The notes under the pieces were generated by a model. It worked only from the letters and a program-made list of their open reading frames with translations. It did no database searches and was not told the origin of the DNA. From Rhodanobacteraceae bacterium (GTDB lineage Bacteria > Pseudomonadota > Gammaproteobacteria > Xanthomonadales > SZUA-5), in contig JACKOW010000001.1 of assembly GCA_024234055.1 (NCBI GenBank), forward strand, positions 146,710 to 210,709: a stretch of 64,000 nt of DNA, written 5' to 3'. Positions 52,195 through 54,971 of the stretch are shown here, one piece after another. The position numbers were made by a program, and so were the translations under genes. The first letter of the stretch is position 1. Every line of letters begins with the position of its first letter.

Positions 52195-52263
52195 GGGGCT
52201 GGTGCTCCGAAACTGGTTTTTGGTGTTGCTGGGCTGCGGCGCCCGGTAAGCGTCTGCGGCCGG

Positions 52264-52345
52264 GTAAAACGTAAAACGTAAAACGTCAATGAAAGCGAAA
52301 AGCTCGGCGCTGGCGAAATTGACGTTTTACATTTTACGTTTTACC
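52264..52345. repeat. tandem-heptamer inverted repeat, GTAAAAC family (atpD-atpC spacer)
   Basis: GTAAAAC x3 + GTCAAT (52264-52290) pairs with ATTGAC GTTTTAC ATTTTAC GTTTTAC (52319-52344). Confidence 0.92.
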
Positions 52346-52403
52346 TGTGCCGCAGGGCATGAGATGCCGGTGACGCCGAGATATGCGTCACCGGCACGGC
52401 AGA

Positions 52404-53813
52404 TCACGCCGCCACACCCATTTCCTTCGCCTTGGCCATGGCTTCATCGATGCCGCCGACCATGTAGAAGGCCTGTTCGGGCAAATGGTCGACTTCACCG
52501 TCGACGATCATCTTGAAGCCGCGGATGGTTTCCTTCAGCGACACGTACTTGCCCGGGCTGCCGGTGAACACTTCGGCCACGTGGAAGGGCTGGCTGAAGA
52601 ACTTTTCGACCTTGCGGGCGCGGGAGACGGTGGCCTTGTCTTCTTCGCTCAGCTCGTCCATGCCCAGGATCGCGATGATGTCCTTCAGTTCCTTGTAGCG
52701 CTGCAGCGTGGACTGCACGCGACGGGCGGTGTCGTAGTGATCGTTGCCGATGACGTTCGGATCGAGCTGACGGCTGGTCGAATCGAGCGGATCCACCGCC
52801 GGGTAGATACCCAGCGAAGCGATGTTGCGGCTCAGCACCACGGTTGCGTCCAGATGGGCGAAGGTGGTGGCGGGCGAGGGATCGGTCAGATCGTCGGCGG
52901 GCACGTAGACGGCCTGGATCGAGGTGATCGAGCCGGTCTTGGTCGAGGTGATGCGCTCCTGCAGCACGCCCATTTCTTCCGCCAGCGTCGGCTGATAGCC
53001 CACGGCCGAAGGCATGCGGCCCAGCAGTGCCGACACTTCGGTACCGGCCAGCGTGTAGCGGTAGATGTTGTCGACGAACAGCAGCACGTCACGACCCTTG
53101 CCGGTGGCCGGATCCTTTTCGTCGCGGAAGTACTCGGCCATGGTCAGACCGGTCAGCGCCACGCGCAGACGGTTGCCCGGCGGCTCGTTCATCTGGCCGT
53201 AGACCATGGCCACCTTGTCGAGCACGTTCGAGTCTTTCATCTCGTGGTAGAAGTCGTTACCTTCGCGGGTACGCTCACCCACGCCGGCGAACACCGACAG
53301 ACCCGAGTGGGCCTTGGCGATGTTGTTGATCAGTTCCATCATGTTGACGGTCTTGCCGACGCCGGCGCCACCGAACAGGCCGATCTTGCCGCCCTTGGCG
53401 AAGGGACACATCAGATCGATGACCTTGATGCCGGTTTCCAGCAGATCGTTGCCACCGGCCTGCTCGGCATAGGTGGGCGCCGAGCGATGGATCACCCAGC
53501 GATCGTCTTCGCCGATCGGGCCGGCTTCGTCGATCGGGCGACCGAGCACGTCCATGATGCGGCCCAGGGTCTTCAGACCCACCGGCACCGAAATGGCCTT
53601 GCCGGTGTTCTCGGCAACCAGATTGCGCTTCAGACCGTCGGTAGAACCGAGCGCAATGGTACGGACCACGCCGTCACCCAACTGCTGCTGCACTTCCAGC
53701 GTGATCTCGGTGCCGGCGATGGTCAGCGCGTCGTACACCTTCGGCACGGACTCGCGCGGGAATTCGACGTCGACGACGGCGCCGATGATCTGTACGACTT
53801 TGCCTTGGTTCAT
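52404..53813 (-). CDS. atpD: F1 ATP synthase beta subunit
   Basis: Start at ATG 53813 ([18 protein letters not shown]). Walker A GGAGVGKT. The ORF-track extension to 53909 reads through a repeat. Confidence 0.97.
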
Positions 53814-53883
53814 GGTGTGGCTCCTGGAACGCTTGAACTTTGATGCGCTACGGCTATTTGCCGCTCGCTGAATTCTTTTTTTG

Positions 53884-53952
53884 GTCAAACGTAAAACGTC
53901 AAACGTCAACTGACAGCCGCTCTCATTGACGTTTTACTTTTTACATTTCACC
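53884..53952. repeat. tandem-heptamer inverted repeat, GTAAAAC family (atpG-atpD spacer)
   Basis: GTCAAAC GTAAAAC GTCAAAC GTCAAC pairs with ATTGAC GTTTTAC TTTTTAC ATTTCACC. Confidence 0.9.
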
Positions 53953-53956
53953 GCTC

Positions 53957-54820
53957 TTAAACTGCTGCCGCGCCGCCGACGATTTCGCTGATCTCCTGCG
54001 TGATCGCGGCCTGACGAGCCTTGTTGTAGATCAGCGTGAGATTGTCGATGGCCTTGGTGGCGTTGTCGCTGGCCGACTTCATGGCCACCATGCGGGCGGC
54101 GTGTTCGGAGGCCAAATTTTCCAGTACGGCCTGATACACCAGGCTTTCGATGTAGCGCGACAGCACGTGATCCATGATCTCGGGCGCGCTGGGCTCGTAC
54201 AGATAATCCCACTGATGCTTGCTGTCCAGATCGTCGGTGGGCAGCAGCGGCAGCAGCTGGTCGACCGTGATCTTCTGGGTCATGGTGTTGACGAAATCAT
54301 TGTAGGCCACGAACAGACGATCGACTCGGCCGTCCATGTAGCTGTCCAGCATCACCTTGATGGCGCCGATCAGCTGATCCACCCGCGGTTTCTCCCCGAG
54401 GTGGGTGACCGAGCCGACCATGTCGACCTTGAGGCGCTTGAAGAAGGCCGTGGCCTTGGCGCCGATGCAGACCACTTCGATCTGCGCGCCCTTGGCCTGC
54501 CACTCGCGGATCTCGCCGAGCAGCTTGCGGAACAGATTGGCGTTGAGGCCGCCGCACAGGCCGCGATCGGTGGATACGATGACGTAGCCGACATGCGACA
54601 CCTCGTCACGCTCGACGAGGAAGGGGTGCTGGTACTCGGTGTTGGCCTTGGCGACGTGGCCAATGACCTGGCGCATCAGCTGCGCGTACGGACGCGAAGC
54701 CTTCATCAGCTCCTGCGCACGACGAATCTTGCTCGCCGACACCATTTCCAGAGCACGCGTCACCTTGCGGGTGTTCTGCACGCTCTTGATCTTGGTTCGA
54801 ATTTCTCTTGCGCCTGCCAT
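53957..54820 (-). CDS. atpG: F1 ATP synthase gamma subunit
   Basis: [32 protein letters not shown]-terminus, 287 aa. Confidence 0.95.
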
Positions 54821-54840
54821 AGGGTGCTCGCTTCGCTCGC

Positions 54841-54950
54841 GGTGAAAAGTGAAAGGTGAAACGTGAAAGGGGCTTCCTAGTGGGTGGGAACTGAGGGCTT
54901 TTAGTTGACGTTTAACGTTTCACGTTTAACTCTACTTGCCTCAACTCCGA
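54841..54950. repeat. tandem-heptamer inverted repeat, GTGAAAC variant (atpA-atpG spacer)
   Basis: GGTGAAAAGTGAAAGGTGAAACGTGAAAGG pairs with GTTGACGTTTAACGTTTCACGTTTAAC. The flank CTACTTGCCTCA matches the flank of the 6261-6562 element. Confidence 0.85.
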
Positions 54951-54971
54951 CCTCCGTGCGGAGTGTCCCGC

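Follow-up and report, generated by a model that had tools for sequence, protein, structure and literature searches.

Tandem-heptamer hairpins in the F1 spacers of a Lysobacterales atp operon as probable local copies of a dispersed, fast-turnover repeat class

The spacers that separate the F1 genes atpA, atpG, atpD and atpC in a 64,000-nucleotide (nt) stretch of a Rhodanobacteraceae genome (assembly GCA_024234055.1, contig JACKOW010000001.1, positions 146,710–210,709; hereafter the window, numbered from its first letter) each contain an AT-rich inverted repeat with arms of tandem GTNAAAC heptamers. We consider it probable, at about 60%, that the three elements are local copies of a dispersed, fast-turnover class of tandem-heptamer hairpins, similar in behavior to repetitive extragenic palindromic (REP) sequences and evolving concertedly as DNA in junctions where they are tolerated. 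GTNAAAC is one unit variant of a class that pervades the Lysobacterales, in which other units are GGGAATC (Xanthomonas) and GGAAAAG, GTGAAAG, GGGACTC and GGGACCC (close relatives of the organism). As shown below, such elements are found just past stop codons where neighboring genes run in the same direction; their turnover is fast, and other repeats, or genes, can replace them. The class and its presence in atp spacers are already known, and the new member is the AT-rich GTNAAAC unit, which is incapable of forming a quadruplex. The interest lies in what this variant says about the class and in the in situ swaps of units, not in the regulation of atp.

A search of the 64-kb window with NCBIfam profiles places all eight genes on the minus strand: atpB (58025–58876), atpE (57709–57969), atpF (57174–57650), atpH (56644–57177), atpA for the alpha subunit (54972–56510; TIGR00962, 6e-245), atpG for gamma (53957–54820; NF004144, 2e-139), atpD for beta (52404–53813; TIGR01039, 3e-249) and atpC for epsilon (51778–52194; NF001847, 4e-61). 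The start of atpA was set by the profile match, at residue 65 of the longest open reading frame (ORF), and the gene calls of 515 amino acids (aa) agree with it. The atpA–atpG (54821–54971), atpG–atpD (53814–53956) and atpD–atpC (52195–52403) spacers measure 151, 143 and 209 bp, exactly as in a first-pass annotation made from the sequence. The Fo spacers are 55 and 58 bp, with atpF and atpH overlapping, and the atpH–atpA spacer is 133 bp with no significant structure (fold z-score −0.7). A motif search with at most one mismatch bears out the statement that the family represented by ACGTAAAACGT has no copy between the Fo genes, and finds none in the atpH–atpA spacer either. No Rfam 15 family reaches its gathering threshold in the region 51000–60000 (E ≤ 1); the only match, over the atpD–atpC hairpin and to a plant miRNA precursor model (28.9 bits vs. 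a gathering score of 128), is a chance match to a long hairpin.

Inverted-repeat and tandem-repeat searches confirm that each F1 spacer holds an inverted repeat of the GTNAAAC family, and the assignment to that family is sustained by the period-7 arms (arrays at 52264–52286, 52325–52344, 53884–53909, 54842–54868 and 54908–54930) and by their ACGTAAAACGT matches. The atpD–atpC hairpin (52255–52355, minus strand), identified by inverted-repeat search and by folding as RNA and as DNA, has 28-nt arms (52263–52290 and 52318–52345) that are 96% complementary, each consisting of three GTAAAAC units and a GTCAAT, on either side of a unique 27-nt loop. Its 28-bp stem has a single mismatch and is lengthened by an outer GC clamp, CTGCGGC/GCCGCAG. 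The predicted RNA fold is −53.4 kcal/mol on the sense strand (z −9.8) and −55.8 kcal/mol on the antisense strand (z −9.3), with z-scores of −9.8 and −9.1 under DNA energy parameters.

The atpG–atpD hairpin (53883–53952, minus strand), identified in the same way and also through an orthologue (L217, below), starts 4 nt past the atpG stop codon. Its arms (53883–53909 and 53926–53952) are 27 nt long and 85% complementary, with a loop of 16 nt and four mismatches in the 27-bp stem. The sense 5′ arm reads GGTGAAAT GTAAAAA GTAAAAC GTCAA and the 3′ arm TTGAC GTTTGAC GTTTTAC GTTTGAC C; the arms mix two types of unit, GTGAAAG and GTNAAAC. The whole spacer folds at −46.6 kcal/mol as sense RNA (z −4.6) and at −35.2 kcal/mol as antisense RNA (z −1.9).

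The third copy, in atpA–atpG (54841–54945, minus strand), was delimited by inverted-repeat search, by folding and by comparison with L217 and with a sister genome (L081). Its arms (54848–54868 and 54911–54931) are 21 nt long and 86% complementary around a 42-nt loop. Because its sense 5′ arm is GTTAAAC GTGAAAC GTTAAAC GTCAAC behind the flank GAGGCAAGTAGA, it is still a member of the family; in the 3′ arm the units belong to the CTTTCAC type, and the inner GTTGAC is missing. The arms are unpaired in the minimum-energy fold of either strand (RNA z −0.3 sense and −0.6 antisense; −0.3 to −1.6 across RNA and DNA energy folds). The copy is a decayed relic, and the set consists of two folding hairpins, one strong and one moderate, and one relic. 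The first-pass annotation had spoken of three strong hairpins and had proposed folding each spacer on both strands; what stands of this is the atpD–atpC hairpin and, at moderate strength, the atpG–atpD hairpin, but not the atpA–atpG one. Nearly perfect double-stranded stems of at least about 20 bp, as in substrates of the RNase III type, are offered by the atpD–atpC and atpG–atpD copies and not by the atpA–atpG copy. Both the atpD–atpC and the atpA–atpG copies begin 40–50 nt past the stop codon, behind another small stem.

The stable stems, together with hexamers in the AT-rich arms that resemble TTGACG and TAAAAT, might call to mind intrinsic terminators, attenuators or internal promoters within the operon. 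Yet the AT-rich stems are followed by CCGG or by an A-run (the latter after the atpG–atpD stem on the sense strand) and none by a T-run, and a sequence scan of the three F1 spacers finds no promoter-like or terminator-like site inside them. A real terminator-like hairpin with a T-run is present downstream of atpC, at about 51726–51754, and a role as terminator or promoter is highly improbable for the elements in the spacers.

The window contains 20 matches to ACGTAAAACGT with at most one mismatch, where 0.16 would be expected; all lie in the three F1 spacers and in two junctions of the gsp (type II secretion) operon, which makes five loci over 64 kb. The family is accordingly real, and chance does not explain it. 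The G+C content of the window is 60–68%, and the unit GTAAAAC has G or C at 2/7 bases. Read from outside to inside, the arms are three GTNAAAC units followed by GTCAA(T/C), about 28 nt in all, with unit positions 1, 2, 4, 5 and 6 (G, T, A, A, A) invariant. In every window copy the purine-rich, A-rich arm comes 5′ and the T-rich one 3′. Their loops show no similarity to one another, and their flanks are of two kinds, CTGCGGC-like and GGCAAG-like, which tend to lengthen the palindrome. Counting all heptamer-arm hairpins of the window, the arms are 21–36 nt and the loops 16–107 nt, each arm being a direct repeat and not a palindrome.

The two gsp copies lie on the plus strand. The gspE–gspF spacer (6268–6555) has GTNAAAC 5′ arms at 6273–6305 and 6376–6405, 3′ arms at 6505–6531 and 6539–6555, and GGCAAG flanks. 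At the gspI/gspJ junction, within the 5′ end of the gspJ ORF, a hairpin at 9529–9614 (34-nt arms, 88%) has predicted folds of −54.1 and −56.4 kcal/mol (z about −9). Two further plus-strand hairpins share this build with other units: GGGACTC at the gspG/gspH junction (8365–8512; 36-nt arms, 92%; period 7, with 4.4 and 4.6 copies) and GGAAAA(A/G) inside the gspI ORF, 2 nt past the gspH stop (9016–9102; 33-nt arms, 85%). Hairpins with arms of 8-mer and 9-mer units sit in convergent spacers of the window, and no repeat-arm hairpin is found in its four divergent (promoter) spacers.

For comparison we used 80 Lysobacterales species (loci L001–L080) kept from a species-representative collection, the source genome not being one of them; the best AtpG match in this collection is 81%, to a metagenome-assembled genome of the Ahniellaceae, and the organism belongs to the Lysobacterales (Xanthomonadales). 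In these relatives, the atpA–atpG spacer has a median of 87 bp (at least 100 bp in 29/79), the atpG–atpD spacer of 87 bp (33/77) and the atpD–atpC spacer of 106.5 bp (37/68); F1 spacers range overall from 2 to 665 bp and reach 100 bp or more in 37–54% of cases per spacer. Long F1 spacers are normal for the Lysobacterales. The norm of tens of base pairs, against which the spacers of the window had at first been set, applies to E. coli K-12 (50, 26 and 20 bp) but not to this order.

Forty-two hairpins with tandem-heptamer arms occur in the atp spacers of 24/80 species, with units that include GGGATTC, GGGAATA/CCCCATT, GGGACCC, GGGAGTG, GTGATTC and CCGAGTC. The G-rich arm is 5′ in 42/42. The arms have about four units (modes 4 and 4), and the lengths of paired arms correlate (rho 0.58). 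The 5′ arm starts at a median of 7.5 nt past the upstream stop codon (20 nt or less in 40/42), and the 3′ arm lies 9–71 nt from the downstream start codon in 41/42. The same junctions are also occupied by unrelated palindromes (of the GTAG type in Stenotrophomonas and other relatives; a perfect one of 35 bp in L043) and by whole genes, such as a HicB/HicA-like pair in the atpG–atpD spacer of L223 and secreted proteins in L007, L030 and L040, whereas in several genera F1 spacers of 2–40 bp are empty. The F1 junctions are a tolerant, recurrently occupied site in the Lysobacterales, and their occupation is not obligatory. A scan of metagenomes with AAACGTNAAACGTCAA gives mostly single matches in unrelated contigs among the loci listed, and about 16 high-GC contigs (in the range L098–L176) carry real hairpins with GTNAAAC, GTCAAAC or GTGAAAC arms, which nearly fill spacers between co-directional or convergent genes (e.g., L105, L124, L132, L133, L174 and L176).

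The turnover is seen best in close relatives. The exact AtpG protein is found on many contigs, most of them with spacers identical to those of the window. One sister genome (GCA_041395365.1; loci L081 and L091) is 97.5% identical to the window over the atp operon and 99.8% over the gsp operon, the latter value being measured 40 kb from atp. Its atpG–atpD spacer is identical to that of the window. Its atpD–atpC spacer is 85% identical, and in the hairpin all three substitutions within units fall at the variable position N, none of them compensated. Its atpA–atpG spacer (3818–3969 of L081) is unrelated to window 54821–54971 and holds a GGGACC(C/G) hairpin with 39-nt arms that starts 1 nt past the stop codon. 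The coding DNA beside that spacer is more diverged (97.5–98.1%) than the gsp region, and the locus suggests that the spacer may be a diverged allele imported by recombination.

Two relatives have AtpG proteins at 92% identity. In L217, the decayed atpA–atpG element is shared with the window, and the orthologous atpG–atpD hairpin has GTGAAAG/CTTTCAC arms: every unit of its 3′ arm differs from the window sequence at two positions, the same ones throughout, and alignment holds in the core of the loop and in the spacer downstream. In L218, the atpA–atpG spacer keeps the flank AGGCA.G, the start of the loop (AAAGCCC.CA) and GCGAGCGAAGCGAGCA with arms made of GGAAAAG, and the atpG–atpD spacer is 37 bp without a hairpin. 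Among relatives at 84–87% AtpG identity (L219, L221, L222 and L223), there are GGAAAAG hairpins in atpG–atpD and atpD–atpC (L222), a GGGACTC hairpin in atpA–atpG with an atpD–atpC spacer of 35 bp (L221), an AGTGAAA hairpin in atpH–atpA (L223), and non-heptamer palindromes with an atpD–atpC spacer of 45 bp (L219). Judging from these alignments, the dominant unit is particular to each genome, orthologous loci swap the unit in both arms, and hairpins are evidently gained and lost among close relatives. Since spacers can be short or free of hairpins (37, 45 and 35 bp in L218, L219 and L221, and 2–40 bp in the genera mentioned above), the hairpins are dispensable at a given junction. Orthologous loci with the unit changed in both arms provide a handle on how such repeats evolve, be it by slippage with arm-to-arm correction or by conversion between copies.

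The first-pass annotation had suggested that the hairpins serve segmental mRNA stabilization, processing or translational decoupling, as RNA elements adapted to atp and to its alpha3, gamma1, beta3, epsilon1 ratio. They do sit exactly at the junctions where the stoichiometry changes; two of them are predicted to be very stable in sense RNA, with the atpG–atpD copy 11 kcal/mol more stable on the sense than on the antisense strand; many genera have strong inverted repeats at F1 junctions; and the short median distance from the stop codon in the 42 hairpins of relatives agrees with such a role. Intercistronic hairpins that set mRNA stability or are cut by RNase III are well known, as in the malE–malF REP, Rhodobacter puf, the T7 early mRNA sites and the Neisseria Correia elements (NEMIS). 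Like those, the hairpins of the window are long stable stems between cistrons of subunits needed unequally; in those systems, RNA ends were mapped and effects measured, whereas sequence comparison shows the hairpins of the window to be dispensable and interchangeable. Against an adaptation to atp, one copy in three no longer folds, a relative at 92% AtpG identity has no atpG–atpD hairpin and others have spacers of 2–45 bp, the unit or the whole spacer is swapped between near-identical genomes, and the same elements are found in the gsp operon and in convergent spacers. Comparison with sister species had been proposed as a check, and in L081, L217 and L218 either the unit is swapped or the hairpin is missing, which goes against the proposal. 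We regard an atp-specific adaptation as unlikely. What stands of the RNA role is that intact copies must fold in the polycistronic mRNA, with a generic effect being plausible; a device selected on the sense strand and tuned to atp stoichiometry is not supported, in view of decay, turnover, wobble counts and the phase of the mismatches. For annotation, the warning is that long structured spacers in essential operons of the Lysobacterales are usually repeat elements and not operon-specific regulators.

The mismatches in the stems bear on whether selection acts on RNA or on DNA. Two G–U pairs on the sense strand had been cited, at 52264–52345 and 9529–9614, and both are correct. Overall, the seven hairpins of the window have 7 sense G–U pairs, 4 antisense G–U pairs and 12 other mismatches; the counts are 5, 3 and 9 for GTNAAAC hairpins in co-directional metagenome contexts and 8, 7 and 9 for close relatives (13 sense vs. 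10 antisense in these two sets). With the window included, the ratio is 20 sense to 14 antisense, which is not significant. Among the 42 hairpins from the 80-species comparison, the bias runs the opposite way (20 sense vs. 42 antisense, with 83 other mismatches; p = 0.007), and the antisense RNA is the more stable in 26/42, a further point against adaptation to atp at the RNA level. No preference for sense-strand wobbles is present in the window, in the AT-rich family or in the 80-species set, and the idea that G–U pairs favor the sense strand is left without support.

All stem mismatches of the window family are at unit position 3 (N) or 7, and in the relatives 58/145 fall at a single phase of the unit. 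Mismatches limited to one or two unit positions, together with parallel substitutions along an arm, point to the spread of unit variants and not to compensated point changes; they indicate arms that would change through unit variants spreading by slippage or conversion. Complementarity is restored after a change of unit, as in GTGAAAG/CTTTCAC (L217), GGAAAAG/CTTTTCC (L218 and L222) and GTAAAAC/GTTTTAC (window), and the two arms are therefore coupled. This coupling could result from selection for pairing or from template-switch correction at a quasipalindrome, and the present data fit both equally. Template switching at quasipalindromes is an established and well-documented mutational mechanism (PMC7202029). 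In the G-rich hairpins of L001–L080, the sense 5′ arm (CGGGAAT)n faces a 3′ arm (ATTCCCC)n, with a periodic C–C mismatch. There, G-to-A variants (GAGAATC) pile up in the sense 5′ arm (37 AC mismatches vs. 5 CA), and the G-tracts stay intact on the antisense strand.

We next consider mobility. The elements could be non-autonomous mobile elements, like MITEs (miniature inverted-repeat transposable elements) or REPINs, inserted by a transposase such as a REP-associated tyrosine transposase (RAYT) and landing preferentially between cistrons. Copies of one genome share units, the inner GTCAAY unit and the GGCAAG or CTGCGGC flank motifs, each genome has its own dominant unit, and related GTNAAAC hairpins occur in many metagenome contigs. 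Further, a 98-bp tandem duplication in gspE–gspF (6288–6385), which carries one GTNAAAC 5′ arm and a GGCAAG flank, is absent from the 99.8%-identical sister (L091) and represents a structural polymorphism of the element. Against this, the loops are unique to each copy, the flanks read without target-site duplication or fixed terminal inverted repeat, and orthologous loci retain flank and loop but swap the unit, unlike what excision and insertion would leave; in Xanthomonas, no association of comparable repeats with mobile elements was found (PMC4692102). We find mobility distinctly unlikely as the general explanation. For MITEs in the strict sense, terminal inverted repeats, target-site duplications and a conserved interior are all lacking in the window copies, whose loops are unrelated and have no flanking direct repeats, and this reading was rejected on the unique loops and the missing target-site duplications.

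The resemblance to the REP sequences and bacterial interspersed mosaic elements (BIMEs) of enterobacteria and to REPs that carry a GTAG or CGTC tag, SMAG of Stenotrophomonas among them (PMC3733652, PMC12306157), is one of behavior. Both are dispersed palindromic repeats 3′ of coding regions, at junctions of unidirectional or convergent ORFs, a few nt past the stop, transcribed as hairpins and occasionally inside genes (PMC3733652, PMC12306157), and gene conversion has been proposed for the evolution of REPs (PMC3733652, PMC12306157). The architecture differs. A REP is a single imperfect palindrome of 20–40 bp whose loop is short and which has an unpaired tag, GTAG or CGTC, at one end, whereas the window family has tandem-repeat arms, stems of 27–36 bp, unique loops of 16–107 nt and no tag. 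Neither the single-palindrome unit nor the unpaired tag is found in the window family, where CGTC is confined to the inner unit, which is paired (ACGTCAAT), and the flanks are CTGCGGC or GGCAAG.

Heptanucleotide repeats are also known in cyanobacteria as short tandemly repeated repetitive (STRR) sequences. They share with the window family the tandem heptamers and the intergenic location, which extends to the inside of operons such as pecE–pecF, but they show few inverted pairs in Nostoc, belong to another lineage and have G-rich units (PMC4692102). The nearest known system is the GGGAATC heptamer repeat of Xanthomonas, which favors arrays of four (Rehm et al. 2015; PMC4692102), which is also the only report matched in the literature on heptamer repeats in the Xanthomonadaceae; for unit strings such as GTAAAACGTAAAAC, the literature matches are unrelated primer sequences only. 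The Xanthomonas GGGAATC repeats lie between aligned ORFs and avoid divergent spacers, they form 70–75 convergent inverted pairs per genome, and their length varies between X. campestris (Xcc) and X. axonopodis pv. citri (Xac); a supplementary table lists inverted pairs in atpA–atpG and atpD–atpC of X. campestris (PMC4692102). The 7-nt unit, the arms of about four units, and the mostly intergenic placement are common to the window family and to the GGGAATC/GGGNATC repeats of Xanthomonas and the GGGGA(C/T)T repeats of Nostoc (PMC4692102). With the Xanthomonas type, the window family also shares co-directional ORFs, proximity to the upstream stop, convergent inverted pairs and variation between close species. 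GTNAAAC departs from it in an AT-rich unit without G-tracts and in the fixed inner unit GTCAAY. Rehm et al. left aside the hairpin form, the turnover of the unit and the operon context (PMC4692102).

The authors ascribe the four-unit preference to a G-quadruplex (G4), which GGGAATC oligonucleotides form in vitro, and state that the function "remains to be elucidated" (PMC4692102). The GTNAAAC and GTTTNAC units hold only isolated G or C by direct reading, with no tract for a G-quadruplex or an i-motif. A G-quadruplex reading of the GTNAAAC family is ruled out by the lack of G-tracts on either strand of the unit. Since the AT-rich family keeps the arm length (about 28 nt), the polarity and the position without a quadruplex, the quadruplex is not defining for the class, and the G-quadruplex account of the four-unit preference cannot define it.

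The same comparison bears on the possibility that the elements act as DNA sites, through non-B DNA (G-quadruplex, i-motif or cruciform) or through a protein that reads the heptamer, with a role in supercoiling, in the nucleoid or in replication. Of the seven positions of the unit, five (GT.AAA.) are invariant and the other two vary freely without compensation, a pattern that is more like recognition of a specific sequence than like mere pairing. Polarity is constant too, the purine-rich arm being 5′ in every copy of the window and in 42/42 of the relatives, and the G4 formed in vitro by GGGAATC would also fit. On the other side, GTNAAAC keeps a four-unit arm without G-tracts, so that G4 or i-motif is not the common denominator, no candidate protein is known, and close relatives have very different units, which speaks against a single conserved reader. 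A role as DNA sites seems very unlikely to us.

A broader proposal reaches beyond the atp operon. The heptamer-arm hairpins might form a superfamily defined by structure and independent of G-quadruplexes (arms of 4 × 7 nt, purine-rich arm 5′, start a few nt past the stop), spread over the Lysobacterales and other high-GC bacteria. Their arms would be rewritten in place, with the unit swapped in both while flank and loop persist, by a polymerase-intrinsic or a dedicated mechanism, and they would serve as interchangeable intercistronic RNA modules in multi-subunit operons (atp, gsp, groES–groEL), tolerated even in cleaved leader peptides. We offer this proposal tentatively and hold it to be rather doubtful as a whole.

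Returning to the reading that we prefer, that of local copies of a dispersed and concertedly evolving class, the following steps can be envisaged. Slippage would homogenize the units of an arm; template switching from one arm to the other (quasipalindrome correction), selection for pairing, or both, would keep the arms nearly complementary; and conversion between copies would account for the unit common to the copies of one genome. Maintenance would thus be mainly by DNA-level processes. Elements would persist where an insertion harms least, between a stop codon and the translation-initiation region of the next gene, such as GCGAGCGAAGCGAGCA in front of atpG. The two intact copies would fold in the atp mRNA as stems of 27–28 bp and could exert a generic effect of the REP or MITE type, as a barrier to 3′–5′ exonucleases or as a substrate of RNase III (at least 20 bp) (PMC3733652, PMC12306157). 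The atpG–atpD copy, 4 nt past the stop, could hinder the terminating ribosome; REP hairpins 15 nt or less from a stop codon lower translation, according to work cited through PMC12306157. Such a generic effect of the hairpins on mRNA ends or translation is plausible, and it may bring a slight benefit where an operon is highly expressed; most likely it would be neither specific to atp nor required for the expression of ATP synthase.

Several points weigh against this preferred reading. In the comparison of the window with the sister genome (L081), the paired regions of the atpD–atpC spacer are less diverged than loops and linkers, which fits constraint as well as conversion. That different units recurrently occupy these three junctions, and do so at a closely kept distance from the stop codon, could reflect positive selection for a hairpin. 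Transposition may be a route by which one unit is carried to several loci of a genome. The copy counts cover 64 kb plus flanks, and every RNA-level effect given here for the hairpins is one that we infer.

Two other parts of the atp spacers lie outside the heptamer family. The whole-spacer fold of atpD–atpC gives a separate stem-loop (52364–52397, minus strand) with a GC-rich stem of 13 bp, 6 nt past the atpD stop. Its stem is identical in the sister L081, while 5/8 loop bases differ, and among the local features this stem is the best indication that pairing is under constraint. Immediately before the atpG start codon, GCGAGCGAAGCGAGCA (54825–54840, minus strand) is a conserved part of the spacer that forms no hairpin; it resembles two copies of an 8-mer. 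The motif or near variants of it precede atpG in L217, L218, L223, Xanthomonas (L044 and L045), Pseudoxanthomonas and Luteimonas, and variants such as GCGAGCGGAGCGAGCA are found upstream of atpG in many genera, mostly those with long spacers (L044, L045, L057, L066, L068, L218 and L223). It may be the translation-initiation region of atpG.

In the gsp operon, heptamer-arm hairpins occur within the 5′ ends of the coding sequences of gspH, gspI and gspJ (8322–9700), which are genes for minor pseudopilins, and precede the motif at which prepilins are cleaved, G|FTL(I/L)E. The N_methyl motif of Pfam begins at residue 82 in GspH, 38 in GspI and 40 in GspJ. Prepilin leaders are normally about 5–10 residues long. 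The gspI start, ATG at 9011, has a Shine–Dalgarno sequence (GGAAGGAG) and an ATGA overlap with the gspH stop. Because no further in-frame ATG, GTG or TTG is found in gspI between this ATG and the motif, the 87-nt hairpin (29 stop-free codons) is apparently translated within a cleavable leader of 40 aa. In the gspJ copy, the third unit is GTCAAAC, by which an in-frame TAA is avoided. The gspH–gspJ region is identical in the sister genome. In-frame insertions of REPs within genes are known elsewhere (PMC3733652).

The genes that occupy F1 junctions in relatives can be located as follows. The HicB/HicA-like pair and its remnants lie between atpG and atpD at 4924–5395 in L223 and at 4865–5296 in L221. 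ORFs of 160–170 aa resembling secreted proteins or lipoproteins lie in atpG–atpD or atpD–atpC at 1620–2194 in L007, 1632–2296 in L030, and 4865–5497 and 6902–7429 in L040.

Tandem repeats of other kinds are also present in the window. Plain tandem heptamers without an inverted partner are ACCCACA (11.4 copies), TCCCGAG (7.7 copies) and GGGGCAG (3.7 and 4.4 copies), at 27627–27706, 33907–33960, 31088–31113 and 33679–33709; the TCCCGAG array starts 12 nt past the stop of the gene at 33972–35771. A 99-bp sequence is repeated 2.3 times at 35802–36025 (98% identity). At 49820–50042, a 116-bp sequence is repeated 1.9 times (82%), adjoining a hairpin with arms of 9-mer repeats (GAACGCAGA, 50018–50120).

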